Of a stretch of DNA of 39,529 nt, positions 10,131-38,533 are shown in pieces; positions within the stretch are counted from its first letter, which is position 1, and each line of letters starts with the position of its first letter. The notes under the pieces are model-generated. The model worked only from the letters and a program-made list of their open reading frames with translations, was not told the DNA's origin and searched no databases. The stretch lies in contig CBDAFS010000018.1 in assembly GCA_965195285.1 (NCBI GenBank), positions 1 to 39,529 on the forward strand. Direction: 5' to 3'. The translations under genes and the position numbers were made by a program. The stretch is from an uncultured Aminicenantes bacterium. GTDB taxonomy: Bacteria > Acidobacteriota > Aminicenantia > UBA2199.

Positions 10131-11156
10131 TTATTTTTTTTGTAACTGCCACAGAGAATCGACAAAATAGTGTCTGGAATCGAAAAAATGTTCAATAATA
10201 ACAAAACCGTTTTTTTGGGCCAATTCTTCTATATCATCAATAAGATATTTGTAAGAAGATTCCGTATGAATTGATTCCCAGGATTTAAATGTGAATGTCC
10301 GGCTCAATTTATCGATGGTCACGGATTGTTTTTGTTGACTGATCAAATAGCTTTTAATGGCTCCGGATAAAGAATCATAGGTGCTGTAATATTTAAATTG
10401 ATCCAAATTGAAGTGGCCATCCAGTTCCCGGTTTATCCGGCTGAGCAGATTCAGGTTGAATAGGGCGGTGATCCCCTTTGAATCATTGTAGGCATCCAAT
10501 AGTAAGCGAATTTCCTTTTTCAGGTCAAAACCGATGAGAAGATAATCCCCATCATTACAGGCATTCCAAAGGCTGGACAGAAACACATCTGCTTCAGGGG
10601 GTTCGAAATTTCCGATATTAGATCCCAGAAACAGTACCACATTGGTACAGTGATTTTGATTGGATAACCATTTCAGCCCTTTAAAATATTCGGAAACCAA
10701 ACCCTTGATATGAATATCGGGAATCTGTGCTTTCAAATTTTTACTAAAAGCGTCCAGAGCCGTATGGGAGATATCAATGGGAATCAGGGTAAATTGTGTC
10801 TTTTTTTCAATCATCTCCTGCAACAGGATTCTGGTTTTTTCACCATTGCCGGCCCCCAGTTCCACCAGGTTGATTTTTTGCCTGCCAATTGTATCAATAA
10901 TTTTTCTTTTCTGTGTTCCCAGAATTTCGGTTTCACAATTGGTCAGATAGTATTCCGGAAGCTTCATGATTTGCCCGAATAACTGACTTCCCTGCTCATC
11001 ATATATGTATTTACAGGGAAGCCATTTGGGAGAATGGGAAAGCCCGATAAGCACATCGATGGCAAATTTCTGTTGCAATTCAGGGTGCTGAATATTCTGG
11101 TTCAGCAAATCCAAGAAATTCAGCTGGCTGATATTCTGGTTGTTTTTTGAGCGCAT
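10131..11156 (-). CDS. egtD: L-histidine N-alpha-methyltransferase (EgtD/EanA family)
   Basis: 341 aa. LPCKYIYD, LPEYYLT..E, VELGAGNGEKT, FLGSNIGNF, AYNDSKGIT..FNLNLL and ESIHTESSYKY motifs. Confidence 0.92.
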   Translation of the reverse strand: MRSKNNQNISQLNFLDLLNQNIQHPELQQKFAIDVLIGLSHSPKWLPCKYIYDEQGSQLFGQIMKLPEYYLTNCETEILGTQKRKIIDTIGRQKINLVELGAGNGEKTRILLQEMIEKKTQFTLIPIDISHTALDAFSKNLKAQIPDIHIKGLVSEYFKGLKWLSNQNHCTNVVLFLGSNIGNFEPPEADVFLSSLWNACNDGDYLLIGFDLKKEIRLLLDAYNDSKGITALFNLNLLSRINRELDGHFNLDQFKYYSTYDSLSGAIKSYLISQQKQSVTIDKLSRTFTFKSWESIHTESSYKYLIDDIEELAQKNGFVIIEHFFDSRHYFVDSLWQLQKK

Positions 11157-11167
11157 AAGTATTTTCC

Positions 11168-19987: not shown

Positions 19988-20080
19988 TAATCCGGAAAAA
20001 CCTTTTTTGACAAAATGATGTATAATAAATGACATAGGTTTATATTTTTGTCACATGTTTTTTGTATAAGAGGAAGTAAA

Positions 20081-23000
20081 ATGAATAACATGAGTCTTAA
20101 AATTTTTATTCCCGCTTTGATGATAATCATATTATTGGCTGCCGGAATGGCTTACGGGCAGACCAAGTTACTGCGCTTCCCGGATATTCACGGCAATGAA
20201 GTGGTGTTCTGTTACGGGGGTGATTTGTGGAAGGCTTCCGTTTCAGGAGGTTTAGCAACCCGCCTGACCGCGCACCCGGGACAGGAGTTGTTTCCCAAAT
20301 TTTCACCGGATGGAAAACGGATTGCTTTTACCGGCCAGTACGATGGCGATGAACAGGTATATGTGATTCCTTCAACCGGAGGAATCCCAAAACAGCTCAC
20401 CTATTATCCGGCCCGGGGCCCGATGGCACCACGCTGGGGCTATGACAACCAGGTATATGGCTGGACACCGGATGGAAAAAAAGTATTGATCCGGTCTCTG
20501 CGGGATGCCAATGGCGGGAGTGTAGAGACTGCCCTTTATACTGTCAGCTACAAGGGAGGATTGCCGGATAAACTGGTCATGCCGTCATCCGGTGCCGGGG
20601 ATTTCTCACCGGATGGAACCCGGATGGTTTATTCTCCGCTGTGCCGGGATTTTCGTACCTGGAAGCGCTATCAGGGCGGATGGGCCCAGGATCTATATGT
20701 TTTCAATTTACAGACTTATGAAGCCAAAAAAATTGCGGAAAGTAAACGCAGTGAACGGGATCCCATGTGGATCGGGGATAAAATTTACTTTTCATCGGAC
20801 CGGGACGGAACCCTGAATCTATTCGGGTATAATCCGGCTGATGGTTCGGTGACCCAGCTGACCAGTAATAAAAAGTGGGATGTGCGCTGGCCCTCCTCTG
20901 ATAATCTGAACCGGATTGTCTATGAGTTGAATGGAGAGCTGAATATTTATGATGTTCAAAAAAAATCCAATCAGAAGATCGGTATAACCGTAACCAATGA
21001 TGGGATTGCCATGAGGCCTTCCCGTTATCCGGCCTATAAGAATATTGAAGATTACGAACTGTCACCCAAAGGCGAACGGGCCCTTTTTGTGGCCCGTGGA
21101 GATGTTTTCACCCTGCCCATAAAAGAGGGACCCACCCGCAATTTAACCAATTCATCCCATGCCCATGATAAATGGGCCCGCTGGTCACCCGATGGTGCCC
21201 GGATTGCCTTTATCTCCGATATGAGCGGTGAAGAACAGGTGTATTTGATCAATCAGGATGGCAGCGGTCAACCCGTGCAACTAACCGATCAATTCAAGGT
21301 CATGCTCTATGCCCCGGCCTGGTCACCGGATGGAAAGCGGCTGGCCTTTTCCGATAAGGACGGCAAACTCTATGTGATGACAATTGCCGATCGCCAGGTG
21401 GTGGAAATTGCGGATGATCGGTATGGTGATATATTTGATTATCGATGGTCACCCAATGGGGGCCACATCGCTTTTTCCATGAACAATCAAAATACCTACC
21501 GTTCGTTATATGTCTGGAGTGTGACAGAAGGAAAATTACACCGAATTACCGGCGAATACTTCAATGAATACTATCCGTTCTGGGGCCCCTCAGGCAATTA
21601 TCTCTATTATCTTGCCGACCGGGAATTCGCGCCTCAGATCAGTTCCTGGGAATGGAATTTTGCCGGTAACCGGGAAACCGGAATCTTTGTCCTGGCCCTT
21701 CGAAAAAATGTGAAACACCCGTTTCCTTCAAAGAGCGATGAAGTAACTGTTGGTAGTCTGAAAAACGACCCAAAAAAAATTGAAAAAAAGGGTAAAAAGA
21801 AGGGATCCATTGGTAGTAAATATATATTAATTGATTATGCGGGCCTGGCCAACCGGGTTAGCCGGGTTCCGGTGAAAACCGATAATATGTCCGGTCTTGA
21901 GGTTACCGACGAATATGTGATTTACCTGACCCGGGGTGCCTTTTTTTATGGCCGGAAAAGCTACAAAAAGGCCGGACTTCAAATTTTTTCCCTGAAGGAT
22001 CGAAAAACATCCACTCTGGCCGATGGGGTGTCCGGATATGCTTTTTCCTTTGACCACAAAAAAGTTTTACTCCGTCAGGATCAATCCTATCATGTGATGG
22101 ATGTCAAACCCCAGGCCAAGGATAAAAAAACCATATCTATCAAAAGCATGATGGTGGACCGTATTCCGGCCCAGGAATGGGCAGCCATATTCAGAGAAGT
22201 ATGGCGGCGCTACCGGGACTTTTTTTATGTGAAAAACATGCATGGAAATGACTGGAAAGTCCTGGGGAATCAGTACAGCGAATGGCTGAAACATGTGGCC
22301 CATCGGTCTGACCTGAACTATGTGCTGGGTGAGATGGTTGCCGAGCTGAGTGCCGGGCACTGTTATATTCAGGGTGGTGATTTCGAGATTCCGAAACGCC
22401 CCCGGGTGGGTCTTCCCGGAGCCCGGTTTGCCCTGGATGAAAAAGCCGGCCGCTATCGTATTGTTGAAATCTTTCAGGGTGATAACCAGGAGGCCAGATA
22501 CCGGGCCCCACTAACCGAAGTGGGAATTGATCTTAATGTCAATGATTATGTCCTGGCCATTGATGGCGAAGAACTCCGGGCCAATGACAATCCCTACCGG
22601 TTGCTGCAGCATAAGACCGATCCGGTTACCCTGACCGTAAACCGTACTCCCAACCTGGCCGGGGCCCGGAAGGTCACCTACCGACCCGTATTCAGTGAAG
22701 CCAAATTACTCTATCACGCCTGGGTTTCACATAATCGAAAAAAAGTCGATCAGATGACCGATGGACGGGTGGGGTATATTCATCTGCCGGATATGGGGGC
22801 GGATGGAATCTATGAGTTTATCAAGTGGTATTATCCCCAAATCCGAAAGGAGGGGCTCATTGTGGACGTGAGATCCAATGGCGGCGGTAATGTTTCCCAG
22901 ATGATTATCGAGCGCCTGGATACCAAACTGCTGGGTACCCGCTTTGGAAATTCCAGTGATGAACCCATTACCTATCCCTATTCGGTTTTTTACGGTCATT

Positions 23001-23371
23001 TGGTTTGTCTGATCAATGAGACTTCGGCATCAGATGGGGATATCTTCCCCCATTATTTCCGTGAGTCAGGCCTGGGCCCCCTGATCGGCAAGCGGACCTG
23101 GGGCGGTGTTGTGGGTATTTCAGGTCGGGGGCCTCTCATCGATGGCGGGCAGGTCTATGTGCCGCTGCGTGGAACCAATAATATTAAAGGTAATTGGGTT
23201 ATCGAAGGTTATGGGGTCGATCCGGATATTGAAGTAGAGAATGATCCCCAATCCATCTTGAAGGGAAGGGATCCCCAATTGGAAAGAGGTGTCAGCGAAG
23301 TCCTGAAAAAGATCGAGCAGAATCCCCGCCGATTACCCAGGAGACCGGCTGATCCGGTGAAAACCAAATAG
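20081..23371 (+). CDS. Tricorn protease homolog (S41 peptidase, PD40 propellers, PDZ)
   Basis: Signal peptide, LLRFPDIHG, repeated (F/W)SPDG, WKRYQGG, RVGYIHLPDM, DVRSNGGG, catalytic SASDGD, GKRTWGG, EGYGVDPDI; AGGAAG RBS before ATG 20081. Confidence 0.93.
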   Translation: MNNMSLKIFIPALMIIILLAAGMAYGQTKLLRFPDIHGNEVVFCYGGDLWKASVSGGLATRLTAHPGQELFPKFSPDGKRIAFTGQYDGDEQVYVIPSTGGIPKQLTYYPARGPMAPRWGYDNQVYGWTPDGKKVLIRSLRDANGGSVETALYTVSYKGGLPDKLVMPSSGAGDFSPDGTRMVYSPLCRDFRTWKRYQGGWAQDLYVFNLQTYEAKKIAESKRSERDPMWIGDKIYFSSDRDGTLNLFGYNPADGSVTQLTSNKKWDVRWPSSDNLNRIVYELNGELNIYDVQKKSNQKIGITVTNDGIAMRPSRYPAYKNIEDYELSPKGERALFVARGDVFTLPIKEGPTRNLTNSSHAHDKWARWSPDGARIAFISDMSGEEQVYLINQDGSGQPVQLTDQFKVMLYAPAWSPDGKRLAFSDKDGKLYVMTIADRQVVEIADDRYGDIFDYRWSPNGGHIAFSMNNQNTYRSLYVWSVTEGKLHRITGEYFNEYYPFWGPSGNYLYYLADREFAPQISSWEWNFAGNRETGIFVLALRKNVKHPFPSKSDEVTVGSLKNDPKKIEKKGKKKGSIGSKYILIDYAGLANRVSRVPVKTDNMSGLEVTDEYVIYLTRGAFFYGRKSYKKAGLQIFSLKDRKTSTLADGVSGYAFSFDHKKVLLRQDQSYHVMDVKPQAKDKKTISIKSMMVDRIPAQEWAAIFREVWRRYRDFFYVKNMHGNDWKVLGNQYSEWLKHVAHRSDLNYVLGEMVAELSAGHCYIQGGDFEIPKRPRVGLPGARFALDEKAGRYRIVEIFQGDNQEARYRAPLTEVGIDLNVNDYVLAIDGEELRANDNPYRLLQHKTDPVTLTVNRTPNLAGARKVTYRPVFSEAKLLYHAWVSHNRKKVDQMTDGRVGYIHLPDMGADGIYEFIKWYYPQIRKEGLIVDVRSNGGGNVSQMIIERLDTKLLGTRFGNSSDEPITYPYSVFYGHLVCLINETSASDGDIFPHYFRESGLGPLIGKRTWGGVVGISGRGPLIDGGQVYVPLRGTNNIKGNWVIEGYGVDPDIEVENDPQSILKGRDPQLERGVSEVLKKIEQNPRRLPRRPADPVKTK

Positions 23372-26300: not shown

Positions 26301-28286
26301 TTACAGCTCCTGGACCACCATCATGGGCTGGTCCTTGGTAACCGGATCACTGTTGTTGACCAGAATTTTCAAAATTTTACATTTGAAGGGAGCTGCTATT
26401 TCATTAAAAAGCTTCATGGCCTCAACCAGGCATACCGTGTCTCCCTGCTTGACTACCGAACCTTCCTGGACATAGGGCGGCGATCCGGATTTTGGCGATG
26501 AATAATAAGTGCCGGATATCATGGCATCAATGGTGGTGCCGGTTTGCGGTGCTTGATCGATTGTATCGGTTATTTCTTTGGTTATTTCCTCAGGAGTTTT
26601 TGACTGGCGAATTTCCTTTTCGGATGGTTTGGTTGGGGAAACCTGTTTGACCTCTGGCCCGGACAATGCCGAACCATTGGCCCGGATGGTTACGCTTAAA
26701 TCCCCTTTTTGAAAGGATAATTCATTTAGATTTATCAGGGAAGCCTTTTCAAGGATGGAGCTGATCCCTTCATAATCCTGGTCATTTAAAATCGGGGCTG
26801 GACTGTCGACCGGTTCTGCTTTTTTTTTGGATGGGTCTTTCGGGCGACTGTAATTACTGTTTTCAATGTTTTCAAACTCGATCTCGGCCTGGGTTTTGGG
26901 CCGATTTTCCGGTGGTAACCTTCTCCATTTGAAATATTCCAGTGATGGTTCCGGAAACAGGCAATAAGAGAGGATATCTTCTTCGTTTTCAATTAATTTG
27001 GGATCCAGGTTATCCGTGGCTGTGGGTAAAATAGGTTTCAAATCATCCGCAGGTCGGTGATCGATGGGTTTTTCCTTTCCCAGGATTTTTTTTAAAAAGG
27101 CCGGATCAATGGGTGCGGGAGGCCGGCCGTAGTAACCCCGGAGGTAATTTTTCACTTCATTGGGAACCATTTTATAGCGCTCACCGGCGATGACATTCAG
27201 GACTGCCTGGGTTCCGACGATCTGGCTGGTCGGAGTGACCAGGGGAGGGTAACCCAGGTCCTTTCGGACTCTGGAAATCTCTTCCAGAGTCTCGGGTAGT
27301 TTGTCCAGTGCTCCCTGTTGTTCAAGCTGGGACCTGAAGTTCGATATCATGCCACCCGGAATTTGATGGACCAGAATTTCGGAATCAATCGGAGGTCGAA
27401 ATTCGGTAAATTTTATCCGACTGGGAATCAGGCGGGTAAAATAGTTGTTTATTTTTCTCAAGGCTTCGATATCCAGCTTGATGGAATAATCGGTCTCTTT
27501 GAAAATGGCATACATGGTTTCGACTGCCGGCTGTGATGAAAATCCGGCCATTGAGGAAATGGCGCAGTCAATGGCTTCGGCACCTGCATCCGCACCGGAT
27601 ATATAGGTGGCAGGAGCCATACCGCTGGTGGCATGACAGTGGAGCTGAATCGGAATGTTGATCTCCTTGGTTAGGGCACTGACCAATTCCTGGGCGGATC
27701 TTGGAGAGAGGATACCGGCCATGTCTTTGATACAGAGTGAATCTATTCCCAATGCCATTTGCTCCTTGGCATACTGGATATATTTGTCCACCGTGTGCAC
27801 CGGACTGATTGTATAGGACAGGCTGCCCTGGGCATGGGCCCCGTATTTTTTAACAGCTTTAATGGCAGCCTGCAGGTTTCGGGTATCATTGAGGGCATCG
27901 AAAACCCGGAAAATATCAATCCCGTTTTCAACTGCCCAGGCCACGAAACGATCCACCAGGTCATCGGGAAAATTTTTGTATCCGACCAGATTCTGACCCC
28001 TTAACAGCATTTGCAGAGGTGTTTTCTTGGCCCTTGATTTAATCATCCGCAACCGCTCCCAGGGATTTTCCCTGAGGAAGCGAAGACAAACATCAAACGT
28101 GGCTCCACCCCATACTTCAAGAGAATAATACCCCACCGAATCGATAGTATCAATAATTTTCATAATATCTTCGCTTCTCATTCGAGTGGCCCATAGCGAT
28201 TGATGGGCATCCCGCAGGGTGGTGTCGGTGATTCTTATCGGGCGAAGCTTTTCTTTGTTTGGTTTTTTTCTTTTTGCTGTGGTCAT
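26301..28286 (-). CDS. Pyruvate carboxylase-B/OadA-type carboxyltransferase fused to an AccB-type biotin carboxyl carrier
   Basis: 661 aa. DTTLRDAHQSL, EVWGGATFD, MLLRGQNLVGY, IKDMAG, HCH, QIPGGM and YPPLVTPTSQIVG; C-terminal GTYYSSPKSGSPPYV..VEAMKLFNEI. Confidence 0.9.
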   Translation of the reverse strand: MTTAKRKKPNKEKLRPIRITDTTLRDAHQSLWATRMRSEDIMKIIDTIDSVGYYSLEVWGGATFDVCLRFLRENPWERLRMIKSRAKKTPLQMLLRGQNLVGYKNFPDDLVDRFVAWAVENGIDIFRVFDALNDTRNLQAAIKAVKKYGAHAQGSLSYTISPVHTVDKYIQYAKEQMALGIDSLCIKDMAGILSPRSAQELVSALTKEINIPIQLHCHATSGMAPATYISGADAGAEAIDCAISSMAGFSSQPAVETMYAIFKETDYSIKLDIEALRKINNYFTRLIPSRIKFTEFRPPIDSEILVHQIPGGMISNFRSQLEQQGALDKLPETLEEISRVRKDLGYPPLVTPTSQIVGTQAVLNVIAGERYKMVPNEVKNYLRGYYGRPPAPIDPAFLKKILGKEKPIDHRPADDLKPILPTATDNLDPKLIENEEDILSYCLFPEPSLEYFKWRRLPPENRPKTQAEIEFENIENSNYSRPKDPSKKKAEPVDSPAPILNDQDYEGISSILEKASLINLNELSFQKGDLSVTIRANGSALSGPEVKQVSPTKPSEKEIRQSKTPEEITKEITDTIDQAPQTGTTIDAMISGTYYSSPKSGSPPYVQEGSVVKQGDTVCLVEAMKLFNEIAAPFKCKILKILVNNSDPVTKDQPMMVVQEL

Positions 28287-28301
28287 ATTTACCTCTGTTT
28301 T

Positions 28302-29243
28302 TTAGGGTTTCCCCATCCTGGCATACATTTCGAAACGTCGTTTCAATAATTTTTTCAGGGGGAACTGGTTCAGTGTATCCAGATGTCTAATGAGGCTCTT
28401 TTTTATATTCCGGGCGGTTTTCTCATGGTTGCGGTGCGCCCCTCCGATGGGTTCTTCAATGATTTCATTAAGCACGCCCATTTTGAGGAGCGAGGGGGCG
28501 GTCAGCTTGAGGGCTTCGGCTGCTGCCGGGGCAAATTTGGCATTTCTCCAGAGTATTGAGGCGCAGCCCTCTGGTGAGATGACCGAATAGATTGAAAATG
28601 ACAACATCAGAATCACATCTCCTGCCCCGATACCGATGGCTCCCCCGCTTCCTCCCTCACCGGTGACCAGAGCAACTAAAGGGACCTCCAGTTGAGCCAT
28701 ATCAGTCAAATTGCGGGCAATGGCTTCTGCTTGGCCCCGTTTCTCGGCTTCCATTCCGGGATAGGCGCCCTGGGTATCGATAAACATGACAACCGGTATA
28801 TGGAATTTTTCCGCTATTTTCATTAACCGCAATGCCTTCCGGTATCCCTCGGGTTTGGCCATCCCGAAATTTCTTTCTATATTTTCTTTGGTATTCTTGC
28901 CTTTGTTGTGACCGATCAACATTACCCGGTGTTCGTCAAGGGTTGCCAGTCCCCCGATGAGGGCACGGTCGTCCGCATAAAGCCGGTCTCCGTGAAGTTC
29001 TATAAAACTATTGAAAATCAGGGAAATATAATCTTGGAGTACCGGGCGTTTGGGATGTCTGGCAATTTGAACCACTTGCCAGGGGGTTAAATTACTGTAA
29101 ATACTGCTGATTTGCTCCTGGCATCGCTTTTCCAGCACCTTTATCTCTGAAGCAAAATTAACATTGGATTTCAGGCTGAGGGTTTTCAGCTCGGCAATTT
29201 TATTTTCAAGATCTTTTATCGGTTTATCAAAATCAAGGTCCAT
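28302..29243 (-). CDS. accA: Acetyl-CoA carboxylase carboxyltransferase alpha
   Basis: 313 aa. LDFDKPI, WQVVQIARHPKRP, ELHGDR, NFGMAKPEGYRKALR, GEGGSGGA, YSVISPEGCASILW and EPIGGAHR. Confidence 0.96.
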   Translation of the reverse strand: MDLDFDKPIKDLENKIAELKTLSLKSNVNFASEIKVLEKRCQEQISSIYSNLTPWQVVQIARHPKRPVLQDYISLIFNSFIELHGDRLYADDRALIGGLATLDEHRVMLIGHNKGKNTKENIERNFGMAKPEGYRKALRLMKIAEKFHIPVVMFIDTQGAYPGMEAEKRGQAEAIARNLTDMAQLEVPLVALVTGEGGSGGAIGIGAGDVILMLSFSIYSVISPEGCASILWRNAKFAPAAAEALKLTAPSLLKMGVLNEIIEEPIGGAHRNHEKTARNIKKSLIRHLDTLNQFPLKKLLKRRFEMYARMGKP

Positions 29244-29280
29244 GGTCAGATCCTCACGTCGGCATCAATTGGATATATTT

Positions 29281-29694
29281 TCATTTTTCCTTTTTTTTAA
29301 AAACCCCCCTGATCTTGTTCCAGATATTCCCCAGAAAGGTTTTCCCTCGGATTTCATCCAGTGCAAATCTCTTTTTCATCTCGATTCCTTTATCTACCTC
29401 TGCGGCAGTAAGGGGTTTTCGGCACAGGTTCTCCTGGGACTCGATATTAAAAAGCAGGTTATCATCTTCCAGATCCACAATGATGGCCTGAATGTGTGAA
29501 AGGCCCAGTTTTTTACAGGCTTCAAGACGGCGCAGGCCTGAAATCAATACCTGATCTCTATTGATCAGTAAAGGAGATATGAGTCCGAAATCGCGGATTG
29601 AATTTGACAGGACATCGATGTCTCCCAAATCTTCTCTGATTCTGTTATTGATCACAATGCTGTTGATTTCGATATTTTTTAATTCCATTTTCAT
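29281..29694 (-). CDS. Stand-alone ParB/Srx N-terminal-domain protein
   Basis: 137 aa from ATG 29694 (AGGAG RBS). LSNSIRDFGLISPLLI, LISGLRRLEA (GxRR) and ENLCRKPL; no obvious HTH. Confidence 0.8.
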   Translation of the reverse strand: MKMELKNIEINSIVINNRIREDLGDIDVLSNSIRDFGLISPLLINRDQVLISGLRRLEACKKLGLSHIQAIIVDLEDDNLLFNIESQENLCRKPLTAAEVDKGIEMKKRFALDEIRGKTFLGNIWNKIRGVFKKKEK

Positions 29695-29728
29695 TTGCTC
29701 TCTCCTGTTAAAAAAATATCTGTTCGGA

Positions 29729-30568
29729 TCATTTTCTTTGATTAAAGTCGAGAATGTTGCCAATCAAATCCTTCATATCTTTTCGGTTCACGATGATATC
29801 AATGAAACCCTGCTCCAGCAGGTATTCGGCAGTTTGAAAATTATCCGGAAGCTTTTGCCGGATGGTTTGTTCTATAACCCTCCTGCCGGCAAAGGCGATC
29901 AGAGCCCCGGGTTCGGCAATATTTACGTCTCCCATCATGGCATAGCTGGCCGAAACTCCGCCCGAGGTGGGGTCGGTGAGCACGGACAAGTAAGGGAGGT
30001 TTCTCTTTTTTAATTGGGCGATTCCCGTACAGGTTTTGGCCATTTGCATGAGGGAGAGCATTCCCTCTTGCATCCTGGCTCCACCCGATGCAGATACGAT
30101 AATATAGGGCAGATTGTGTTCAACTGCGGCCATGGCGGTTTGAAAGATTTTTTCACCGGTTCCACTTCCCAGGCTGCCACCCAGAAATCTGAAATCCATG
30201 ATCGCTATGGCAACTTTGCGGTTATTGATTTTACCATACCCGGTGATTACCGCTTCATTCAGGCCGGTCTTGGAAATGGTTTCTTTGATTTTATTTCCGT
30301 AGCTTCCTTTTTCGTCTTTAAAATTGAGTGTGTCCCTGGGTGTGATGCCGGAATACAGTTCTTCAAAGCTGCCTGGATCGATTAGCAAATCAAGTCTCTC
30401 GGTGCAGGATATCCTTCCGTGATAATTGCATTTGGGGCATACCTTCAGGTTTTTTTCCCATTCCTGCTTGAAAATATGGCCCTGGCAGGCCGTGCAACGG
30501 GTCCAGATATCCAGCTTGAGTTTTCCGGGGGTTTTACTTTTTACATCGGTTTTCTTTAACCAGGCCAT
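29729..30568 (-). CDS. accD: Acetyl-CoA carboxylase carboxyltransferase beta
   Basis: WTRCTAC..VCPKCNYH zinc finger, FLGGSLGS, SGGARMQEG..SLMQMAKT, DPTSGGVSAS and FAGRRVIEQT. Start placed at ATG 30568. Confidence 0.96.
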   Translation of the reverse strand: MAWLKKTDVKSKTPGKLKLDIWTRCTACQGHIFKQEWEKNLKVCPKCNYHGRISCTERLDLLIDPGSFEELYSGITPRDTLNFKDEKGSYGNKIKETISKTGLNEAVITGYGKINNRKVAIAIMDFRFLGGSLGSGTGEKIFQTAMAAVEHNLPYIIVSASGGARMQEGMLSLMQMAKTCTGIAQLKKRNLPYLSVLTDPTSGGVSASYAMMGDVNIAEPGALIAFAGRRVIEQTIRQKLPDNFQTAEYLLEQGFIDIIVNRKDMKDLIGNILDFNQRK

Positions 30569-30636
30569 GGTTCTATCCTGAAACAAGGAAATAGCACGCT
30601 GGAAAATATCGATCAGACGGTATATGCATGTTGAGT

Positions 30637-30665
30637 ATTATATAATATTGTGCCGATTTATTCAA
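30637..30665 (-). promoter_or_regulatory. Putative sigma70 promoter for the accD operon
   Basis: Minus-strand TTGAAT-17-TATAAT. Confidence 0.55.
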
Positions 30666-31639: not shown

Positions 31640-32068
31640 CTAAGAGCCAATATAATCATTTAAATACTTTATGGTCGAGTCCAGATCCCTGATTTTGGCT
31701 TTGACCAGGTCCCCGATGGATACTACCCCGGTGATTTTTTCCTGGTCGATCACCGGTAGATGCCGGCAGTGTAGCTTGGTCATCACTGACAGGGCATCGT
31801 CAACCGAGTCCGAAAGATTGACAAAAACAGGATTTGGAGTCATGATTTCCTTTACCAGTGTGTTTTTGGATGACCGGTCTTTTAGAATAATTTTTTTCAT
31901 ATAATCTCTTTCGGTTATTACTCCCAGCAGCTTTTCATCGGACATGACCAGCATGGCCCCGACGTTTTGAGCAGACATCTTTTTCAGGCTTTCGTAGACA
32001 GTTAAATCGGGAGGAACCGAATGAATCTCATAACCCTTTTCTTTCAAGATATCCCTTATATTAATCAT
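31640..32068 (-). CDS. CBS-pair domain protein
   Basis: 142 aa. VGAMLV..LLGVITERDY and RHLPV..GVVSIGDLVK; GGAGG RBS; upstream TTGACA-16-TATCAT (32156-32129). Confidence 0.9.
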   Translation of the reverse strand: MINIRDILKEKGYEIHSVPPDLTVYESLKKMSAQNVGAMLVMSDEKLLGVITERDYMKKIILKDRSSKNTLVKEIMTPNPVFVNLSDSVDDALSVMTKLHCRHLPVIDQEKITGVVSIGDLVKAKIRDLDSTIKYLNDYIGS

Positions 32069-32311
32069 GGGTTGCCTCCTCGTTTGTCATCGGGTTTAAT
32101 TGCCAATTGATATCGATATGCCCCTGTTATGATACTTAAATATTTTTTTTTGTCAATGTCCTTATCTTGGCAGGCGTTTTCATGGAATGCTAAATGGTAT
32201 TATTTTTTAAAATAAAATGTTTTCTGAATGAAATTGTGCTATAAATGAAGGTTGAAAAAATGTGGAAACATGTTTGCCCGGTGATAAAAATGATTAAAAT
32301 GGGTGGTGGGA

Positions 32312-32701
32312 ATGACTAAAAAAGAATTTGCCCGAATAAGAAAAAAGTTAAAAAAAACCCAGAAGGGAATCGCAATCCTGTTGGGTATTTCCCAAAAAGC
32401 AGTGGAAAGTTATGAACAGGGTTTGAGAAATATTCCACGAAATATTGAAAGGATTATGTATTTTCTTCTTTTTAAATTAAATATGGATAAACTGGAGCAG
32501 GATGAATTATGCTGGAATGAAAAAGGGTGTTCCCCGGAGATTCGGAGAAACTGTGTGGCCTGGATAGCAGATGAAGGTTTTTTTTGCTGGTTTTTGACCG
32601 GAAGGACCTGTTTGGGTCAAAAAATGGCTTCAGCAACATATTCTCAAAATTGTTTTGATTGTAATTTTTTTCGGGAAAAACTGAAAAAAATATTGTCTTA
32701 G
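32312..32701 (+). CDS. XRE-family HTH regulator with C-terminal Cys-rich (two CW motif) domain
   Basis: IRKKLKKTQKGIAILLGISQKAVESYEQG HTH, followed by CW..C..C..CW..C..CxxC (7 Cys). Confidence 0.8.
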   Translation: MTKKEFARIRKKLKKTQKGIAILLGISQKAVESYEQGLRNIPRNIERIMYFLLFKLNMDKLEQDELCWNEKGCSPEIRRNCVAWIADEGFFCWFLTGRTCLGQKMASATYSQNCFDCNFFREKLKKILS

Positions 32702-32753
32702 ATATGGGTTATCCCGTCAAAAATATATTTCTTTCCGTAGCCGGTAGAATAGG

Positions 32754-33770
32754 CTAACCAAAGGAATTTTCTATCCGCCTCCAATCCGTAAACACAGGAT
32801 CATATCCTTTCTTTTTGATCATAGAGATGATTTCTCTAACCGATCGGTTATCCTGTACCTCAAATTGAGGATTTTTTTTGTTTTCCAGAGCATAACCACC
32901 AACCGTTGTTCTTGAAGCCGCAGAAATTTTGGTGACTCCCAGTATGATTGCCTGATCTCTTAAAAGAGGCTTTTCCCGGGTGGAGAGATTAATTCCTACT
33001 CTGGGGAACAGGATTCGGGCAGTACAGATAAGTTTTATCAATGTTAGATCAGATATCTCAAAATATTGAAATTTTGATTTTTTCAGAGGTATTAACCTGG
33101 GGAAAGATAGGGAATACTCCACACCGGGATATTGTTTTTCCATCCATTCAAGATGAAGAAATAATTGATATATATCCTCTGATAATTCAGAAAGCCCTAA
33201 CAACACTCCCATGCTAATCATCCTTATTCCAGACTGTGCTATTCGTTCAGGGGTTTTATATCTAAAATTATAATCGGTTTTTGGACCGGCGATATGAAGT
33301 TTTTTATATTGTTTTTTATTGTAGGTTTCCTGGTAGATAGTAACACCATCAACTCCATTTAGATACAATTCCCGGTATTCCTCTACATCCATAGGATAAA
33401 CCTCAAGGCTGATACAGGGAAAATATACTTTTGCAATATTTACAGCTTCTATAATATAATCAATAGCGGTTATCTTCCGGGATTCACCGGTTAATAATAG
33501 TATGTTCTGAATCCCTAAAGCAGATATGGTCTTCATCTCCTTATTCATTTCTCGGATTGATAGTTTTTTCCTTTTCAGTTTGGTTTTGGTTTGAAAACCA
33601 CAATAGATACACTGATTTTCACAATAATTGGAAAGATACAGAGGGGCATAAAGTGAGATGGTCCTGCCAAAATACTGAATAGTTGTTTTCCTGGCTTTTT
33701 TTGCCAAGCCTTCAACAAAATGGGGATTGTTATTTTTCAGAATGTATTTTAATTCTTTAATGGAAATCAA
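32754..33770 (-). CDS. thiH: 2-iminoacetate synthase (radical SAM tyrosine lyase)
   Basis: YAPLYLSNYCENQCIYCGF, LLTGE, YQETY, LSTRE, SAASRTTVGGY and QFEVQDNRS; TTG start overlaps the thiG stop. Confidence 0.9.
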   Translation of the reverse strand: MISIKELKYILKNNNPHFVEGLAKKARKTTIQYFGRTISLYAPLYLSNYCENQCIYCGFQTKTKLKRKKLSIREMNKEMKTISALGIQNILLLTGESRKITAIDYIIEAVNIAKVYFPCISLEVYPMDVEEYRELYLNGVDGVTIYQETYNKKQYKKLHIAGPKTDYNFRYKTPERIAQSGIRMISMGVLLGLSELSEDIYQLFLHLEWMEKQYPGVEYSLSFPRLIPLKKSKFQYFEISDLTLIKLICTARILFPRVGINLSTREKPLLRDQAIILGVTKISAASRTTVGGYALENKKNPQFEVQDNRSVREIISMIKKKGYDPVFTDWRRIENSFG

Positions 33771-34552
33771 TTTTTTTCTTCAAATAAAAATCCGGTTAAT
33801 GGGGAAGAAGATGATGCTGAATCCTTGGCCTCTTGAAATTTGATTAGGTATGCCATTCTTCCCGCTTTAACCGCCAGTGAGAATGCTCTGGTAATCAGGA
33901 CTGGATCTTCTGCAGTTGCCACAGCTGTATTGGCCAGAACAGCAGCAACCCCCATCTCCATCGCTTCTGCAGCCTGGGAGGGTTTTCCTATCCCGGCATC
34001 GATAATGATGGGCAAATCGATTTCTGCAATCATTATTTCGATAAATTTTTTAGTTTTTAATCCTTGACTGCTGCCGATAAGGGACCCCAGTGGCATTATA
34101 GCTGCAGCGCCGGCCTTTGCCAGTTCCCTGGCTACATACAGATCGGGATACATATAGGGGAGAACGGTGAAGTCTTCTGAAACCAGAATTTCTGTTGCCC
34201 TGATGGTTTCATGGTTGTCAGGGAGTAAATATTTGCTGTCATTGATGACCTCAACCTTTATCCATGTTATCCCCGAGGCTTCTTTGGCCAATCTGGCAAT
34301 TCTCACCGCCTCTTTGGCATCCCTGGCACCAGAGGTGTTTACCATGAGTATCACATCTTCAGGAATATATTCAAGAATGTTTTCGGAATGTTTTTCAATA
34401 TCAATCCTTCTCATGGCAATAGTAACCACCTGAATTTTGCTTTTGCCAATGCATCTTTTCATTTCATTGTTACTTTTAAACTTTCCTGTACCCAGGAAGA
34501 ATCTATTGGTGATAGTTTGTCCTCCAATAATCAGGTGATCCTTGCTGGCCAT
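33767..34552 (-). CDS. thiG: Thiazole synthase
   Basis: 261 aa. LGTGKF, NTSGA..EAVR.ARLA, WIKVEV (Schiff-base Lys), MPLGSLIGS, DAGIG.PS.A and ASSSSP. Confidence 0.96.
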   Translation of the reverse strand: MASKDHLIIGGQTITNRFFLGTGKFKSNNEMKRCIGKSKIQVVTIAMRRIDIEKHSENILEYIPEDVILMVNTSGARDAKEAVRIARLAKEASGITWIKVEVINDSKYLLPDNHETIRATEILVSEDFTVLPYMYPDLYVARELAKAGAAAIMPLGSLIGSSQGLKTKKFIEIMIAEIDLPIIIDAGIGKPSQAAEAMEMGVAAVLANTAVATAEDPVLITRAFSLAVKAGRMAYLIKFQEAKDSASSSSPLTGFLFEEKN

Positions 34553-34753
34553 TTATCCACCCCCCACCATTTGAATCAATTCAATCGAATCTCCGTTCTT
34601 TAATTTGTGGTGTTTATATTCATTTTTGCCTATAAGACTCCCATTCAATTTAACAATAATGTATTCTTCTTGCTTTAAAAAAAGATGTAGCAAATCCTGT
34701 AAGTTTAATGATTCTTCAAGTTCTCGCATTTCCCCGTTTATGGTCAATTGCAT
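34553..34753 (-). CDS. thiS: Sulfur carrier protein ThiS
   Basis: LTINGE..VKLNG..LKNGDSIELIQMVGGG with C-terminal Gly-Gly; abuts thiG. Confidence 0.93.
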   Translation of the reverse strand: MQLTINGEMRELEESLNLQDLLHLFLKQEEYIIVKLNGSLIGKNEYKHHKLKNGDSIELIQMVGGG

Positions 34754-34816
34754 CAATAACTCATTTTAGGTTGGCTTGAATCCTTAGATAATTATAGTAA
34801 TTACTGCAATTTATAA

Positions 34817-35818
34817 TTATAATCCCAAATATCGTGAATATATCGATTTTGCGATTCCTTTGTCACCGGTTCCCTTTATTAAAGCTCTTCCATCTTGGAA
34901 AATTGTGATTTTCTTTCCTTCCACCTGAAACCTTAAAACATATTCGCTAACGAGCAATTCATTTACTTTATTTTTTAGATTTTCAGAAATTTTTTTTAAA
35001 TTTAAAGTTGAATTCACCGGAGGGATAATTTGGATTGCATTATCACATAATTCTAAAATCATCTCCTTTTTTTCTGTATTCAAAAAGTTAAAATTGTTTT
35101 TCACACAACATTGACATTCATCGTTCTTTGTTACCTCTATCGTTTCAAATTGATGATTCCACACATCATAAAACACCATTCTTCTTTCAATATCTTTATT
35201 AAGGAGTATTTTTATTGCTTCTGTACTCTCTATGGAAGCCAGGATATTTACAATGGTATTCAATACTCCTGCTGTTTCACAAGTTGGAGTCAAACCAGGA
35301 GGGGGGATTTTCGGTAAAATACATTGTAAACATGGCCCCTGAGGCAGGATATTCATCATCATCCCATGGGTTTGAATTATGCCCGTATATATCCAGGGAA
35401 TTTTATTTTTTATACAGGCATCATTCATAATCATTCTGGTCTGAAAATTATCAGTGGCATCGAGCACAAGATCAGACTCTTCAATGAATGCTTCAATATT
35501 GCTACTATTCAGATCAACGATGAAAGGAACTATCTCAATCTCAGAATTGATTTTTCCAAGTTTTTCAACAGCTGCGATAACCTTGGGGGAGCCTACATCG
35601 AGTTCATCAAACAAAATCTGTCGCTGTAGATTGTTTAATTCAACAACATCTCTATCAATAATATGCAAAATTCCGATTCCGGCCCGGGTTAGGTTATTGG
35701 AGATATTGGTTCCCAGAGCCCCGCAGCCTATGATTACAACTTTACTTTTTTTGAGTATTTCCTGGCCTTCCTCTCCAATCTGCTGAAGTATGGTTTGTCT
35801 TGAATATCGAATGCCCAT
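34817..35818 (-). CDS. thiF: ThiF/MoeB-family adenylyltransferase with C-terminal extension
   Basis: 333 aa. RYSRQ, IGCGALG, DRDVVELNNLQRQ, DATDN, CLQC, TCETAGV, CQCC and FQDGRALIKGT. Confidence 0.88.
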   Translation of the reverse strand: MGIRYSRQTILQQIGEEGQEILKKSKVVIIGCGALGTNISNNLTRAGIGILHIIDRDVVELNNLQRQILFDELDVGSPKVIAAVEKLGKINSEIEIVPFIVDLNSSNIEAFIEESDLVLDATDNFQTRMIMNDACIKNKIPWIYTGIIQTHGMMMNILPQGPCLQCILPKIPPPGLTPTCETAGVLNTIVNILASIESTEAIKILLNKDIERRMVFYDVWNHQFETIEVTKNDECQCCVKNNFNFLNTEKKEMILELCDNAIQIIPPVNSTLNLKKISENLKNKVNELLVSEYVLRFQVEGKKITIFQDGRALIKGTGDKGIAKSIYSRYLGL

Positions 35819-35830
35819 TTCAATTGTTTT

Positions 35831-36628
35831 TTAAAGAACTTCATTCATACTTCCGGACCTATATCCTTCCATGTCCAGGCTTATATACACAAATCCCAGC
35901 TCTTTTAATTTTTCTACAACCCTCTTTCTGTTTTTTATAATTATTTGAATATCTTCTTCATTAATTTCAATCCTGGCACTGTTTTCATGATTCCTGACCC
36001 GGGATTGTCTTACTCCCAAATCATATAGAAATGATTCTGCCTCTTCAATTCTTTTTAGTTTTGCAGAAGTTATTGATTCTCCATAAGGAATCCGGGATGC
36101 CAGGCAGGTTGTGGATGGCAGATTGTAATTGGACAAACCCAGCGCTTTAGCCAGTGGTGCGATCATGCTTTTTTTTATTTCAGCTTCAACCAGAGGTTGA
36201 AAAAAGCCTTCTTCGTTTAAAGCCTTTATTCCGGGCCGGTGTTCTGAAAAATCAGATAAATTTACTCCGAAGGCGATATGTTTGAATCCGGATTGGCCGG
36301 CAATTTTTTTTAGTGCAAAGATCTCCTCTTTTTTACAGTGATAACATCTGTCTGTCGGGTTGTTAATGAAATCAGAATTATCAAGTTCTGATATTTTTAT
36401 TATTTTGTGATCGATTCCGATTTCTGAAGCTATCTCCTTTGCCCCCCTCAGTTCCCTTTTTGAAAATGTATCGGATTCTATGGTTACTGCCAGCGATTTC
36501 TCTCCAAGCTCATCACGGGCAATTTTTGCAATTAATGAGCTGTCCACCCCCCCGGAAAATGCGATTATCAGTGAACCTTTTTCTTTTATTATTTTTCTTA
36601 ATTTTTTTATTTTTTCAATTGCATTCAC
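35831..36628 (-). CDS. larE: LarE-family ATP-dependent sulfur transferase (CxxC+C, 4Fe-4S type)
   Basis: 265 aa. AFSGGVDS PP-loop, RCYHCK, HRPG, CLASRIPYG and GYRSGSMN. Confidence 0.88.
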   Translation of the reverse strand: MNAIEKIKKLRKIIKEKGSLIIAFSGGVDSSLIAKIARDELGEKSLAVTIESDTFSKRELRGAKEIASEIGIDHKIIKISELDNSDFINNPTDRCYHCKKEEIFALKKIAGQSGFKHIAFGVNLSDFSEHRPGIKALNEEGFFQPLVEAEIKKSMIAPLAKALGLSNYNLPSTTCLASRIPYGESITSAKLKRIEEAESFLYDLGVRQSRVRNHENSARIEINEEDIQIIIKNRKRVVEKLKELGFVYISLDMEGYRSGSMNEVL

Positions 36629-37718
36629 TTTTTACCTCTCTCTCGATGATCCCACCGCCCAGGACAACATTACCTTTATAGAATACAATAGATTGCCCCG
36701 GGGATATGGCAGATTGGGGATTTTGAAAATTGACCAGGACCCGGTTCTTTTCAAACGGCATTACCCGGGCAAGGGCTTCTTCATGATGGTATCTGATTTT
36801 GGCTTTAATATTCAATGTGTCGGTTAATCTATCAAAATTGATCCAGTTCAGGTCTTTGGCAATGAGTCTGGTACCCATCAGACTGTCTCTGTTGCCCACG
36901 ATGATGGCGTTTCTTTTTTTATCCTTGGCAATGACATAAAGGGGTTCCTGACTGGGAATGCCAATGCCCTTTCTCTGACCAATGGTGTAAAATACAAGGC
37001 CCCGGTGTTCTCCCTTTATTTCACCCTGTGAATTCAGTATCGGTCCGGGATTCCGGTCTTTAAATAATTGATGATATCCGCCGGCCATAAAATCCTGACT
37101 CTCTTTCTTTTCAGAGACAGCCAATTTAAATTTTCGGGCCAACTCTCTTATTTCTTCTTTTGCATATTTTCCCAGGGGAAAGATTGTTTTTTCAAGCTGA
37201 TGATCTTTTAAATGATAGAGAAAATAACTCTGGTCTTTTTTCAAATCCGTTGCTTTTTTTAAAAATGCCGTTCTGTTCTGCATGTCATATTCAACCTGCG
37301 CATAGTGCCCGGTGGCAAAATAATCAAATCGAATCTCTCTCTTGTTGAGTTCATTCATAATGGCTTTGAATTTTAATTCTCTGTTGCATTTGGAGCAAGG
37401 ATTGGGTGTGTTCCCGTTGGAATATTCTTCCACTACAAAGTCAATTATATTGGTTTTATATTCCTGTTTTAAATCAATGGTATGAAATGGGATTTTCAAA
37501 ATTTCCGCTACTTTTTTGGCATCCCGGAGATCATCTTTCTCATCCGGGCCAAAGCAGGCGTGATGCATAACCTCGGATTTAAGAATTGAGTCGCTATAGA
37601 CTTCCATGAATACACCGATTACCTCGAATCCCTGATGTTTTAGTAAAGCCGCTGCCACCGAAGAATCAACTCCTCCACTCATGGCTATGGCTACTGTTTT
37701 TTTATTTTTTTTACACAT
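36615..37718 (-). CDS. mnmA: tRNA 2-thiouridine(34) synthase MnmA (variant Cys pattern)
   Basis: 367 aa. AMSGGVDSSVAA, TPNPCSKCN, ATGHYA, KDQSYFL, YTIGQRKG and SPGQSIVFY. Confidence 0.9.
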   Translation of the reverse strand: MCKKNKKTVAIAMSGGVDSSVAAALLKHQGFEVIGVFMEVYSDSILKSEVMHHACFGPDEKDDLRDAKKVAEILKIPFHTIDLKQEYKTNIIDFVVEEYSNGNTPNPCSKCNRELKFKAIMNELNKREIRFDYFATGHYAQVEYDMQNRTAFLKKATDLKKDQSYFLYHLKDHQLEKTIFPLGKYAKEEIRELARKFKLAVSEKKESQDFMAGGYHQLFKDRNPGPILNSQGEIKGEHRGLVFYTIGQRKGIGIPSQEPLYVIAKDKKRNAIIVGNRDSLMGTRLIAKDLNWINFDRLTDTLNIKAKIRYHHEEALARVMPFEKNRVLVNFQNPQSAISPGQSIVFYKGNVVLGGGIIEREVKSECN

Positions 37719-37724
37719 GCGATA

Positions 37725-37759
37725 TACTACATTGTAGTAGTCATTGGATTGAAAGTCAA
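37725..37759 (-). promoter_or_regulatory. Sigma70 promoter of the mnmA-thi block with a palindrome over the -10
   Basis: Minus-strand TTGACT (37759-37754), 17-nt spacer, TACAAT (37736-37731); TACTACA-T-TGTAGTA palindrome at 37725-37739. Confidence 0.6.
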
Positions 37760-37843
37760 GTTTTACAGTAAGAGATGATTTTGCCAGATCAATACCTTTT
37801 GCAGAATCTGGGAGAATAATTTTGTCCTTTGGATTTATCTGTT

Positions 37844-38533
37844 TTAATCTTCATCCAGAATGTCCCTCAGCTTTTCCCGGTTTTTGAGGGTGATTTTTTT
37901 CCGTTTGTATTCAATGATTTTCTCCCTTTCCAGGGCGGCGAAAATCCTGGATAGGGCGGGACGGGTTACCCCGAAAAATTCACTGAGTTCCCGCTGGTTT
38001 TTGGGAAGTGTCAGGGAGTTCTTACCCGGTTTTGAAAGGCTTAAAATATAGGATGCGATTTTTTCCCGGATGGTTTTAAAGCTCATAAACCAGAGTTTTT
38101 CACTCAGAAATTGGGCCCGGTTGCTGATGGTATTAAGGTAATTGGTGAGCAACTGGGGACTCAGTTGAAATAACCGGAGCAATGAATTTCGGGGTATCCA
38201 GAGGACCAGGACTTCATCAACAGCCACTACATCGACCGGGAACTTGTTTTGTTTGCCGAATAGAAAGGCCGGCGCCAGGGGACGGGGAGCGGAGATCATT
38301 TCAATTTCAATGGTCTTGCCTTTGAAATCCAGCATCTCCCCCCGAACCATGCCCTTCAGTAAAATCATCAGTACATGACAGGGATCTCCCCTGAAAACCA
38401 GAGTGTTTCCCCGGTTGAATTTTTTTACCTGATATTGGATGTGTTCGAACAATTTCTTTATTTTCTGGGGGGGGAGGTTTCCAAACAGCAATGAGCTTGA
38501 AAGAGTCTCATAAAATACTGATTTCATGTCCAT
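37844..38533 (-). CDS. Crp/Fnr-family regulator (HcpR-like)
   Basis: 229 aa. cNMP-like domain (LAPAFLFG..FPVDV), KTIREKIASYIL and HTH ELSEFFGVTRPALSR. Confidence 0.9.
   Translation of the reverse strand: MDMKSVFYETLSSSLLFGNLPPQKIKKLFEHIQYQVKKFNRGNTLVFRGDPCHVLMILLKGMVRGEMLDFKGKTIEIEMISAPRPLAPAFLFGKQNKFPVDVVAVDEVLVLWIPRNSLLRLFQLSPQLLTNYLNTISNRAQFLSEKLWFMSFKTIREKIASYILSLSKPGKNSLTLPKNQRELSEFFGVTRPALSRIFAALEREKIIEYKRKKITLKNREKLRDILDED

Follow-up and report, generated by a model that had tools for sequence, protein, structure and literature searches.

A candidate ATP-independent route to malonyl-CoA in an uncultured Aminicenantes bacterium: an accD-accA operon with a pycB::accB fusion

Acetyl-CoA carboxylase (ACC), with its ATP-using biotin carboxylase (BC), is regarded as essential in bacteria, as the first and committed step of their fatty-acid synthesis, and it is an antibiotic target. 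Here we analyze an operon of an uncultured Aminicenantes bacterium in which accD and accA, encoding the two subunits of the ACC carboxyltransferase (CT), are accompanied by a gene for a small ParB-like protein and by a gene for a 661-aa fusion of a PycB/OadA-type CT with a complete AccB-type biotin carrier. The operon lies in a 39,529-nt stretch of DNA (the window), which is the whole of contig C18 of a 3.28-Mb, 62-contig assembly (GCA_965195285.1; completeness, 94.9%; contamination, 1.7%). An earlier note on this DNA had proposed that the genes encode either an oxaloacetate-dependent, ATP-independent malonyl-CoA transcarboxylase or a merged pyruvate carboxylase (PC)/ACC complex served by a remote BC. 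The distribution of related operons among bacteria without BC suggests that oxaloacetate can probably serve this bacterium as a source of malonyl-CoA at no cost in ATP.

A known biotin enzyme of this kind is the methylmalonyl-CoA:pyruvate transcarboxylase of Propionibacterium (12S/5S/1.3S, EC 2.1.3.1). With it the operon would share a biotin arm that moves, without ATP, between a site of 5S/PycB type (oxaloacetate/pyruvate) and one for carboxyl transfer to acyl-CoA. It differs in that the acyl-CoA site is AccA/AccD rather than a PccB-like 12S subunit, in that a thumb-bearing AccB, joined to the 5S-like subunit, takes the place of the free, thumb-less 1.3S protein, and in that malonyl-CoA for lipids, rather than fermentative propionate, is the proposed product. 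The solved 1.3S domains (1dcz, 1o78) are distant matches of the fusion tail. By analogy, the system may work like the Propionibacterium enzyme, but its model scores, partner, and carrier place it outside the 12S/5S/1.3S family.

The closest described system, compared here by description only, is the protist ACCT/PycB, or "malonyl-CoA:pyruvate transcarboxylase," of Entamoeba histolytica, Giardia, Mastigamoeba, retortamonads, and Monocercomonoides. Conversion of oxaloacetate and acetyl-CoA to pyruvate and malonyl-CoA is reported for the single-chain enzyme of Entamoeba in a passage of PMC8136499 that cites Clark 2007 and Barbosa-Cabrera 2012. Passages of PMC7985675 and PMC12308965 call ACCT/PycB a fusion enzyme that may supply malonyl-CoA, and the latter source lists it for Monocercomonoides. 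Both systems combine an ACC-type CT, a PycB-type CT, and a biotin carrier in a set without BC, and the same reaction is proposed for both. In contrast to the single protist polypeptide, the bacterial set consists of three or four separate genes, the ParB-like one being optional; it would feed de novo type II fatty-acid synthesis (FAS II; fabD is present) and not elongation alone, and a BC coexists with it in this genome. The literature searched, subscription papers and supplements lying outside the search, yielded no paper on accD-accA-pycB::accB operons in bacteria or on FAS II bacteria without BC. The reaction is already known from protists; for a multi-subunit enzyme in bacteria, and for its phyletic association with BC loss, that literature seems to have no description.

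From E. coli-type ACC (AccA, AccB, AccC, AccD) the locus has AccA and AccD equivalogs and the AccB N-terminal segment, linker, thumb, and EAMK motif. Unlike that system, it has no paired accB and accC genes; its AccB is present solely at the end of a PycB-type protein, and most carriers of the fusion elsewhere have no AccC. PycA/PycB and OadA systems differ as well: no pycA adjoins the fusion, the genome has no OadB, and the tail is longer and of AccB type.

Gene order and domain anatomy of the operon

According to the open reading frame (ORF) list, the four genes share the reverse strand in one tight operon, as the earlier note had read it, with gaps below 40 nt: counted from accD, 34 nt (or a 35-nt overlap with an upstream TTG start), 37 nt, and 15 nt. 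Its features are as follows.

30637..30665, reverse strand: promoter-like site TTGAAT-17-TATAAT upstream of accD (10/12 in a consensus scan; weak, a consensus match alone)
29729..30586, reverse strand: accD, carboxyltransferase beta subunit with N-terminal Cys4 zinc ribbon, 285 aa (TIGR00515, PF17848)
29281..29694, reverse strand: small protein with a ParB N-domain only, 137 aa, or 160 aa if read from the TTG at 29763 (PF02195)
28302..29243, reverse strand: accA, carboxyltransferase alpha subunit, 313 aa (TIGR00513, PF03255)
26301..28286, reverse strand: PycB/OadA-type (5S-like) carboxyltransferase fused to a complete AccB-type biotin carrier, 661 aa (NF006761, PF00682, PF02436, PF00364)
26877..28241, reverse strand: carboxyltransferase domain for oxaloacetate/pyruvate, fusion residues 16-470 (PF00682, PF02436)
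26304..26765, reverse strand: AccB-like tail, fusion residues 508-661, with N-terminal AccB segment, Pro/Thr/Glu linker, and biotinyl domain (TIGR00531, match to the E. coli biotin carboxyl carrier protein, BCCP)
26469..26513, reverse strand: AccB-specific thumb GTYYSSPKSGSPPYV, fusion residues 592-606 (E. coli BCCP alignment and insert table)
26412..26414, reverse strand: codon of the biotinyl-lysine K625 in EAMK (invariant in the fusion alignment)

The ferritin gene downstream of the operon has a promoter-like site of its own, again a consensus match alone. In metatranscriptome run X1, which belongs to the same study as the probable source DNA, eight near-identical pieces match portions of all four genes, namely accD, the ParB-like gene, accA, and the fusion gene, as well as the junction of the last two; carry-over of DNA is possible and stretches without coverage carry no weight, and hence we do not count them as transcription.

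Both ACC-type subunits pass their equivalog models, AccD with 364.8 bits (TIGR00515; cut-off, 317.45) and AccA with 446 bits (TIGR00513; cut-off, 319.3), the latter also matching PF03255 with 472.7 bits. The AccD zinc ribbon scores 24.5 bits with PF17848 (Zn_ribbon_ACC), at the cut-off, and its cysteines C31, C34, C50, and C53 are invariant in an alignment of 13 operon homologues.

The fusion aligns end to end with PycB/OadA proteins and scores 775.1 bits with NF006761, "pyruvate carboxylase subunit B" (cut-off, 402); it has the HMGL-like TIM barrel (PF00682) and the PYC_OADA domain (PF02436). Scores with the oadA model TIGR01108 (709.5 bits; cut-off, 756.5) and with the 5S transcarboxylase equivalog NF008984 (513.9 bits; cut-off, 827) stay below the respective thresholds. 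The CT domain is the best-conserved part of the fusion in an alignment of its family, where D21/R25/D26/H28/Q29, K187-D-M-A-G, and H216-x-H218, which we take to be metal and substrate motifs, are invariant, as are E622, A623, M624, and K625 of the biotinylation motif.

Domain comparisons indicate that the tail is a whole AccB, with N-domain, linker, thumb, and EAMK, as had been supposed. Residues 508-659 align to positions 6-155 of the 156-position BCCP model TIGR00531 with 93 bits, below the cut-off of 115.2, as expected from a diverged, fused copy; a full-length, stand-alone AccB of about 156 aa scoring above that cut-off is not what is found here, AccB being the tail of a 661-aa protein. 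The best solved relative of the tail is E. coli BCCP (4hr7_B), matched over its whole length, N-terminal segment included, by tail residues 10-166. The thumb stretch aligns to the E. coli thumb without gaps, and both peptides that the note had quoted from this region are present in the translation. As a control, the last 95 residues of 81 proteins were aligned and scored for the 7-residue thumb insert. It was present in 7/7 canonical AccB proteins of relatives, in all 28 tails of the fusion family, and in 8/8 fusions of a Firmicutes/Coriobacteriia type (see below), whereas 36 of the 37 ordinary OadA/PycB tails lacked it; the remaining one, L019, is a short form of the fusion family. The other biotin carrier of this genome, a 169-aa BCCP, does not have the insert. 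Compared with an ordinary PycB/OadA tail, that of the fusion is about 70 residues longer.

Distribution of the fusion and of biotin carboxylase

When the tail was used as query among proteins of similar length, 147 proteins were retrieved, from sources named Chitinispirillales, Fibrobacter, Kiritimatiellia, Spirochaeta isovalerica, Spirochaetales, and Latescibacteria; Chitinispirillum alkaliphilum and S. isovalerica are among the source-named carriers. The fusion is annotated at the source as "pyruvate carboxylase subunit B," "oxaloacetate decarboxylase alpha," or "acetyl-CoA carboxylase biotin carboxyl carrier protein." Twenty-five relatives from several phyla are 58-84% identical to the fusion over the full length, those of distant phyla 58-66%. 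The order accD-accA-fusion is kept in a Bacteroidales metagenome-assembled genome (MAG; L016), in a Victivallales MAG (L017), and in L018, and also, with or without the ParB-like gene, in 14/20 loci from the class of G042, a Victivallales genome. Closer to the window the distribution is patchy: among 41 relatives of its genome, the fusion occurs in the window's own genus (4 genomes) and in G014 only.

In a tree of the CT domain, 31 sequences of the fusion family form one group (100% support in the Shimodaira-Hasegawa-like approximate likelihood ratio test), apart from 10 ordinary OadA/PycB proteins; the tree is quick, unrooted, and sparsely sampled (a motif filter retained 55 of 111 sequences) and does not settle the number of AccB-tail fusion events. 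A locus search with the family alignment returned as family members, among the 80 loci listed, L016-L018 and the short form L019, the rest being ordinary OadA, PycB, or PC. A fully fused ACCT/PycB form was not seen among the 120 matches listed out of 7999 candidates scored, in which PCs of about 1160 aa dominated, so that this is weak evidence. Two loci (L113:5223-8777 in G051 and L114:6899-10279 in G085) encode a fused AccD-AccA (616 and 558 aa) next to a PycB-family member of 562-563 aa in which the thumb-type biotinyl domain is kept and the AccB N-segment is gone; both genomes are without BC.

A second type of pycB::accB fusion, from Firmicutes/Coriobacteriia (L025, L038, L052, L057, L072, L080, L085, L095), likewise has a PycB-type CT and a thumb-bearing AccB-like tail, its match lying at about 10000-11900 in most of these loci. 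The quick tree separates it from the family of the window; it is 51-56% identical to the window's fusion in the CT domain, and, unlike the latter, shows no link to accD-accA in the loci seen. Such genes come from Peptococcaceae, Desulfosporosinus, Thermincola, Clostridia, and Coriobacteriia MAGs, with a 447-481-aa BC gene directly after the fusion. The locus looks like an accB-accC operon whose accB became fused to pycB, and these fusions are most simply taken as BC-dependent.

The earlier note had asked for accC to be searched in this genome and in genomes with the same fusion; the outcome is positive in this genome, as described below, and negative in many others. From the Lentisphaeria-type class of G042, 81 genomes were drawn evenly (completeness of at least 90% requested, with no per-genome figures), BC being scored as absent by TIGR00514 at E<=1e-40. 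Carriers, defined as having a family member at >=55% identity (seven single-chain PCs and one 45%-identical OadA-like match were set aside), number 24. Twenty-two genomes of the class are without BC, and all 22 are carriers, whereas BC is present in 57/57 non-carriers; fusion and BC occur together in G058 and G089 only. In G042 itself, a PF02786 search found two carbamoyl-phosphate synthetases (CarB) and no BC. All 81 genomes have fabD. OadB is encoded by 14 of the 22 BC-less carriers and missing from 8; where checked (G075, G103, G111, and the BC-bearing G089), it adjoins a second, ordinary OadA and not the fusion.

A similar picture emerged from the phylum of G043, which is probably Spirochaetota, as the fusion of G043 is 76% identical to a protein named for Spirochaeta isovalerica. 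The full-length family is present in 33 of 71 genomes; 24 of these 33 carriers are without BC and 16 of the 24 without OadB, while fabD is found in 71/71. Among 121 genomes taken evenly from across the phylum of G042 (fusion threshold, E<=1e-150), all 14 carriers fall among the 25 genomes that lack a Biotin_carb_C domain (PF02785), and TIGR00514 detected no BC in five of five new carriers tested from that sample. Over both lineages, BC is missing from 46 of the 57 carriers. These have AccD/AccA and fabD, and hence a need for malonyl-CoA; 24 of the 46 also lack OadB and with it a Na+ pump that might run in reverse, as such pumps can in vitro. In BC-less carriers we infer that the PycB-type domain is the only thing able to load biotin with CO2. 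The pattern among carriers argues that the operon can supply malonyl-CoA without BC, for which oxaloacetate transcarboxylation would be the simplest reaction.

Function of the operon in the Aminicenantes genome

What the operon catalyzes, in which direction, and as what physical complex, we infer from its genes, their domains, and their distribution among genomes. The biotinyl-lysine on the fused AccB-type arm would take a carboxyl from oxaloacetate at the PycB-type domain, releasing pyruvate; the loaded arm would then swing to the AccD/AccA carboxyltransferase and hand the carboxyl to acetyl-CoA. The net reaction, oxaloacetate + acetyl-CoA -> pyruvate + malonyl-CoA, would use neither ATP nor bicarbonate. 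Oxaloacetate would come from phosphoenolpyruvate (PEP) through the ATP-type PEP carboxykinase PckA, which the genome encodes (TIGR00224, 639 bits; cut-off, 590). Each malonyl-CoA delivered to FabD and FAS II would thereby be one ATP cheaper than by the route through pyruvate kinase and ACC. By textbook reasoning, not computation, the free-energy change of the carboxyl exchange is near zero and FAS II provides a pull. We lean toward the view that the four genes encode one biotin enzyme complex whose main route in this bacterium is ATP-free transcarboxylation fed by PEP carboxykinase.

Several observations weigh against this view. The statement that BC is lacking holds for the window's contig, where profile searches found no match, but not for the genome, which encodes exactly one BC (C31:35455-36963; TIGR00514, 601.8 bits; PF02785, 140.7 bits); it passes the accC subfamily model NF006367 (616 bits; cut-off, 597). 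By its sequence the fused tail retains the whole AccB anatomy of a BC substrate. Five carriers (G058, G089, G149, G165, and G181) retain accC without an adjacent accB, although in relatives without the fusion accB lies directly upstream of accC in 7/7 loci (L128-L134). A PF00364 search found no stand-alone AccB in the five; its matches were the fusion, E2-sized proteins, one OadA beside OadB, and one 88-aa open frame. BC thus very probably loads the fusion arm in these genomes, where the enzyme can also act as an ATP-dependent ACC/PC. Elsewhere, the absence of BC rests largely on MAGs, and carriers within a lineage are kin, so that the counts are not independent events. Also, 17 fabD-bearing genomes in the phylum of G043 have neither BC nor fusion, and 11 BC-less genomes in the phylum-wide sample of G042 have no fusion match at E<=1e-150; hence loss of BC is not tied to the accD-accA-fusion operon alone.

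The 17 genomes (G128, G131, G134, G137, G140, G144, G146, G148, G152, G154, G160, G168, G170, G180, G188, G190, and G192) have no PycB-type protein, all have OadB, and AccA was absent in 5/5 checked. Their loci L126:7749-9476 and L127:6027-10012 encode a PccB/MmdA-type carboxyltransferase of 517-575 aa, in G134 two genes from OadB. One idea is that malonyl-CoA in these genomes may arise by Na+-driven reversal of a decarboxylase. The 11 genomes (G204, G214, G222, G228, G236, G247, G252, G255, G267, and two more) may have diverged or split copies of the fusion, or another route.

The BC of the window's genome is part of a cluster of its own, between a PccB/MmdA-type carboxyltransferase (TIGR01117, 804 bits, below the cut-off) and the 169-aa thumb-less BCCP, which matches generic biotinyl domains only; acyl-CoA dehydrogenase, thiolase-like, and hydroxyacyl-CoA dehydrogenase genes lie upstream. 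Judged by its gene content, this cluster is a complete carboxylase by itself that does not need the fusion. The BC sequence does not separate an AccC role from one in propionyl-CoA carboxylase, as its identity is 48-54% whether canonical AccC proteins or the orphan AccC proteins of carriers are compared. The same cluster layout occurs in G001 and in the Bacteroidales MAG G041. Many Aminicenantes relatives have a second PccB-BC-BCCP cluster (for example, L100; G001:C15:11711-16033) that was not found in the window's genome; its BC-like protein of about 500 aa reaches only about 290-320 bits against the accC model and shares 32% identity with the BC of the window's genome. Beyond the fusion and the 169-aa carrier, the genome has no biotinyl domain, the one further match being a lipoyl GcvH, and its carboxyltransferases are three: AccD, AccA, and the PccB type. 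The fusion is its only PYC_OADA protein and its only AccB-type carrier, no stand-alone AccB having been found by the biotinyl-domain search.

These facts leave room for a merged ATP-dependent ACC/PC, in which the remote BC carboxylates the fused arm with ATP and bicarbonate, the arm serves AccD/AccA or the PycB-type domain, and transcarboxylation is a side reaction. We regard this as the chief rival, less probable than the main reading but real. In its favor are the single BC of this genome and its lack of another AccB-type carrier, the full AccB anatomy with its thumb, and the accC-bearing carriers that have no other AccB; in the Firmicutes type, moreover, a BC gene follows pycB::accB in 8/9 loci, which also speaks against an ATP-free main route. 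In the window's family, accB and accC stand side by side in 8/20 other genomes, and the pair is missing from the window's genus (g1). Against a merged enzyme, the only BC belongs to a cluster that supplies both a CT and a carrier for it, PckA already gives oxaloacetate, so that a PC is less needed, and 46 of the 57 carriers in the two lineages live without BC yet with fabD, which implies that an enzyme 58-66% identical to the present one works BC-free. Some genomes, namely the five accC carriers without another AccB, do fit the merged complex suggested by the earlier note, and it is possible in this one.

Two further explanations appear improbable. The fused carrier might serve only as the BCCP of an ACC half-enzyme with AccD/AccA, the PycB-type domain being an independent oxaloacetate enzyme or scaffold without catalytic link; this we consider unlikely. 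Fusions of BCCP to various partners are described as common in this enzyme family in a passage of PMC3199775. Yet with one biotin on one flexible arm and two carboxyltransferase sites, exchange would be hard to avoid; the CT domain is the best-conserved part of the protein, the fusion gene shares an operon with accD-accA in several phyla, and in BC-less carriers nothing else could load biotin. Even less probable, in our judgment, is a catabolic or energy-conserving decarboxylase system in which the fusion as OadA, AccD/AccA as malonyl-CoA carboxyltransferase, or both feed carboxybiotin to a Na+-pumping beta subunit. The Malonomonas-type malonate decarboxylase is a comparable Na+-pumping system, the fusion scores 709.5 bits with oadA, and OadB occurs in 14/22 and 8/24 of the BC-less carriers of the two lineages. 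However, the oadA score is below its threshold, and OadB (PF03977) is found neither in the window, as had been claimed, nor anywhere else in this 94.9%-complete genome, no search having been made for oadG. Where checked, OadB adjoins a second OadA, it is missing from 24 BC-less carriers, and the source of malonyl-CoA would be left unexplained.

ATP-free transcarboxylation is favored here because the BC has its own CT and carrier, PckA can supply oxaloacetate with a gain of ATP, and the fusion is 58-66% identical to BC-free versions. The AccB N-segment in BC-less carriers does not contradict it, since in PMC11160672 the first ~30 residues of E. coli BCCP are proposed as an oligomeric tether, and the N-terminus and zinc domain of AccD contact BCCP as well as BC. 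Loading of the arm by the remote BC is possible but secondary in this genome, and both modes may operate. The proposal of an ATP-independent transcarboxylase thus has strong phyletic support as a capacity, from BC-less carriers with fabD, while the BC present here keeps its use in this genome in the balance.

The most economical history has three steps. An accB gene would have been joined to one of pycB type and brought together with accD-accA in a genome still retaining accC, giving a carrier common to three active sites; accC would then have been lost many times, leaving an obligate transcarboxylase; and the window's genus would have lost the accB-accC pair, retaining only the BC of the PccB cluster, like G001 and G041.

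A broader proposal seems to us evenly poised: that entire clades of BC-less anaerobes obtain their malonyl-CoA from split AccD/AccA with PycB::AccB and from nothing else (the Lentisphaeria-type class, the spirochaete-type phylum, and others), so that ATP-dependent ACC would not be universal in fatty-acid-making bacteria; that the protist ACCT/PycB is a fused descendant or sibling; and that the system runs here beside a separate ATP-dependent acyl-CoA carboxylase and is tuned, in several phyla, by a ParB-fold nucleotide-binding mini-protein encoded between accD and accA. If the operon acts as its distribution implies, many fermentative anaerobes (Lentisphaeria-type, spirochaete-type, Fibrobacterota/Chitinispirillales by source names, some Bacteroidales and Aminicenantes) would make malonyl-CoA from oxaloacetate, would save one ATP per C2 unit, and would not be affected by BC-directed inhibitors. 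The labels "pyruvate carboxylase subunit B" and "oxaloacetate decarboxylase alpha" would then mis-assign anaplerosis and lipid synthesis in genome-scale models and annotation pipelines, the origin of the protist ACCT/PycB would gain a bacterial context, and a three-gene, ATP-free malonyl-CoA module would be attractive for engineering malonyl-CoA-derived products.

The ParB-like protein and other genes of the window

The product of the gene between accD and accA matches PF02195 (ParB_N) with 33.9 bits (cut-off, 26.3) and positions 8-107 of the 186-position model TIGR00180 with 51.3 bits, below its cut-off of 58.45. A word-index search found 13 close relatives of 128-144 aa, and Met24 (numbered from the TTG start) is invariant among distant homologues; we therefore took 29694 as the start, which gives 137 aa. 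The boxes G-x-R-R-x-x-A and E-N-x-C-R are invariant in the alignment; these are presumably the GxRRxxA and ENxxR boxes of ParB, whose ENLQR has Gln where Cys stands here. The helix-turn-helix DNA-binding and C-terminal dimerization domains of ParB were not found in the 137-aa protein, whose predicted structure has one or two helices after the N-domain. The model has a predicted local distance difference test score of 66 overall and above 80 for about residues 30-100, the core alone being confident. That core is closest to CTP/CDP-bound ParB, Noc, and the 132-aa PadC, followed by sulfiredoxin and the serine kinase SerK.

A ParB-like gene is kept at the same operon position in the window's own genus (L007 and L008; 70-89% identity), and genes for proteins of 131-170 aa, 34-47% identical to that of the window, lie between accD and accA in L104, L105, L108, L109, and L111. 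Recurrence at one position across phyla points to a functional tie to the operon, and since the gene is missing from most operons, its product is unlikely to be a core catalytic part. Going by the structural model, it is probably an optional, nucleotide-binding accessory. A ParB/Srx-fold protein acting as an ATP-using biotin loader in place of BC was considered and rejected, as the gene is present in 5/14 complete operons of the class of G042 and in none of L016-L018.

Elsewhere in the window, positions 32001-38000 have a G+C content of 0.36-0.40, compared with 0.41-0.51 in the remainder. This low-G+C stretch includes a 132-aa ORF (32303-32701, forward strand) with a basic N-terminus and a Cys-rich C-terminal half, for which no Pfam match was obtained at E<=1e-5. 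The other genes noted are as follows.

32754-33770: ThiH-like radical SAM/BATS gene, in the low-G+C stretch
33767-34552: thiG, in the low-G+C stretch
34817-35818: ThiF-family gene, in the low-G+C stretch
20048-23371, forward strand: ordinary tricorn-type protease, 1107 aa, with PD40 repeats, Tricorn_C1, PDZ_Tricorn, and Peptidase_S41 domains and an N-terminal signal-like segment

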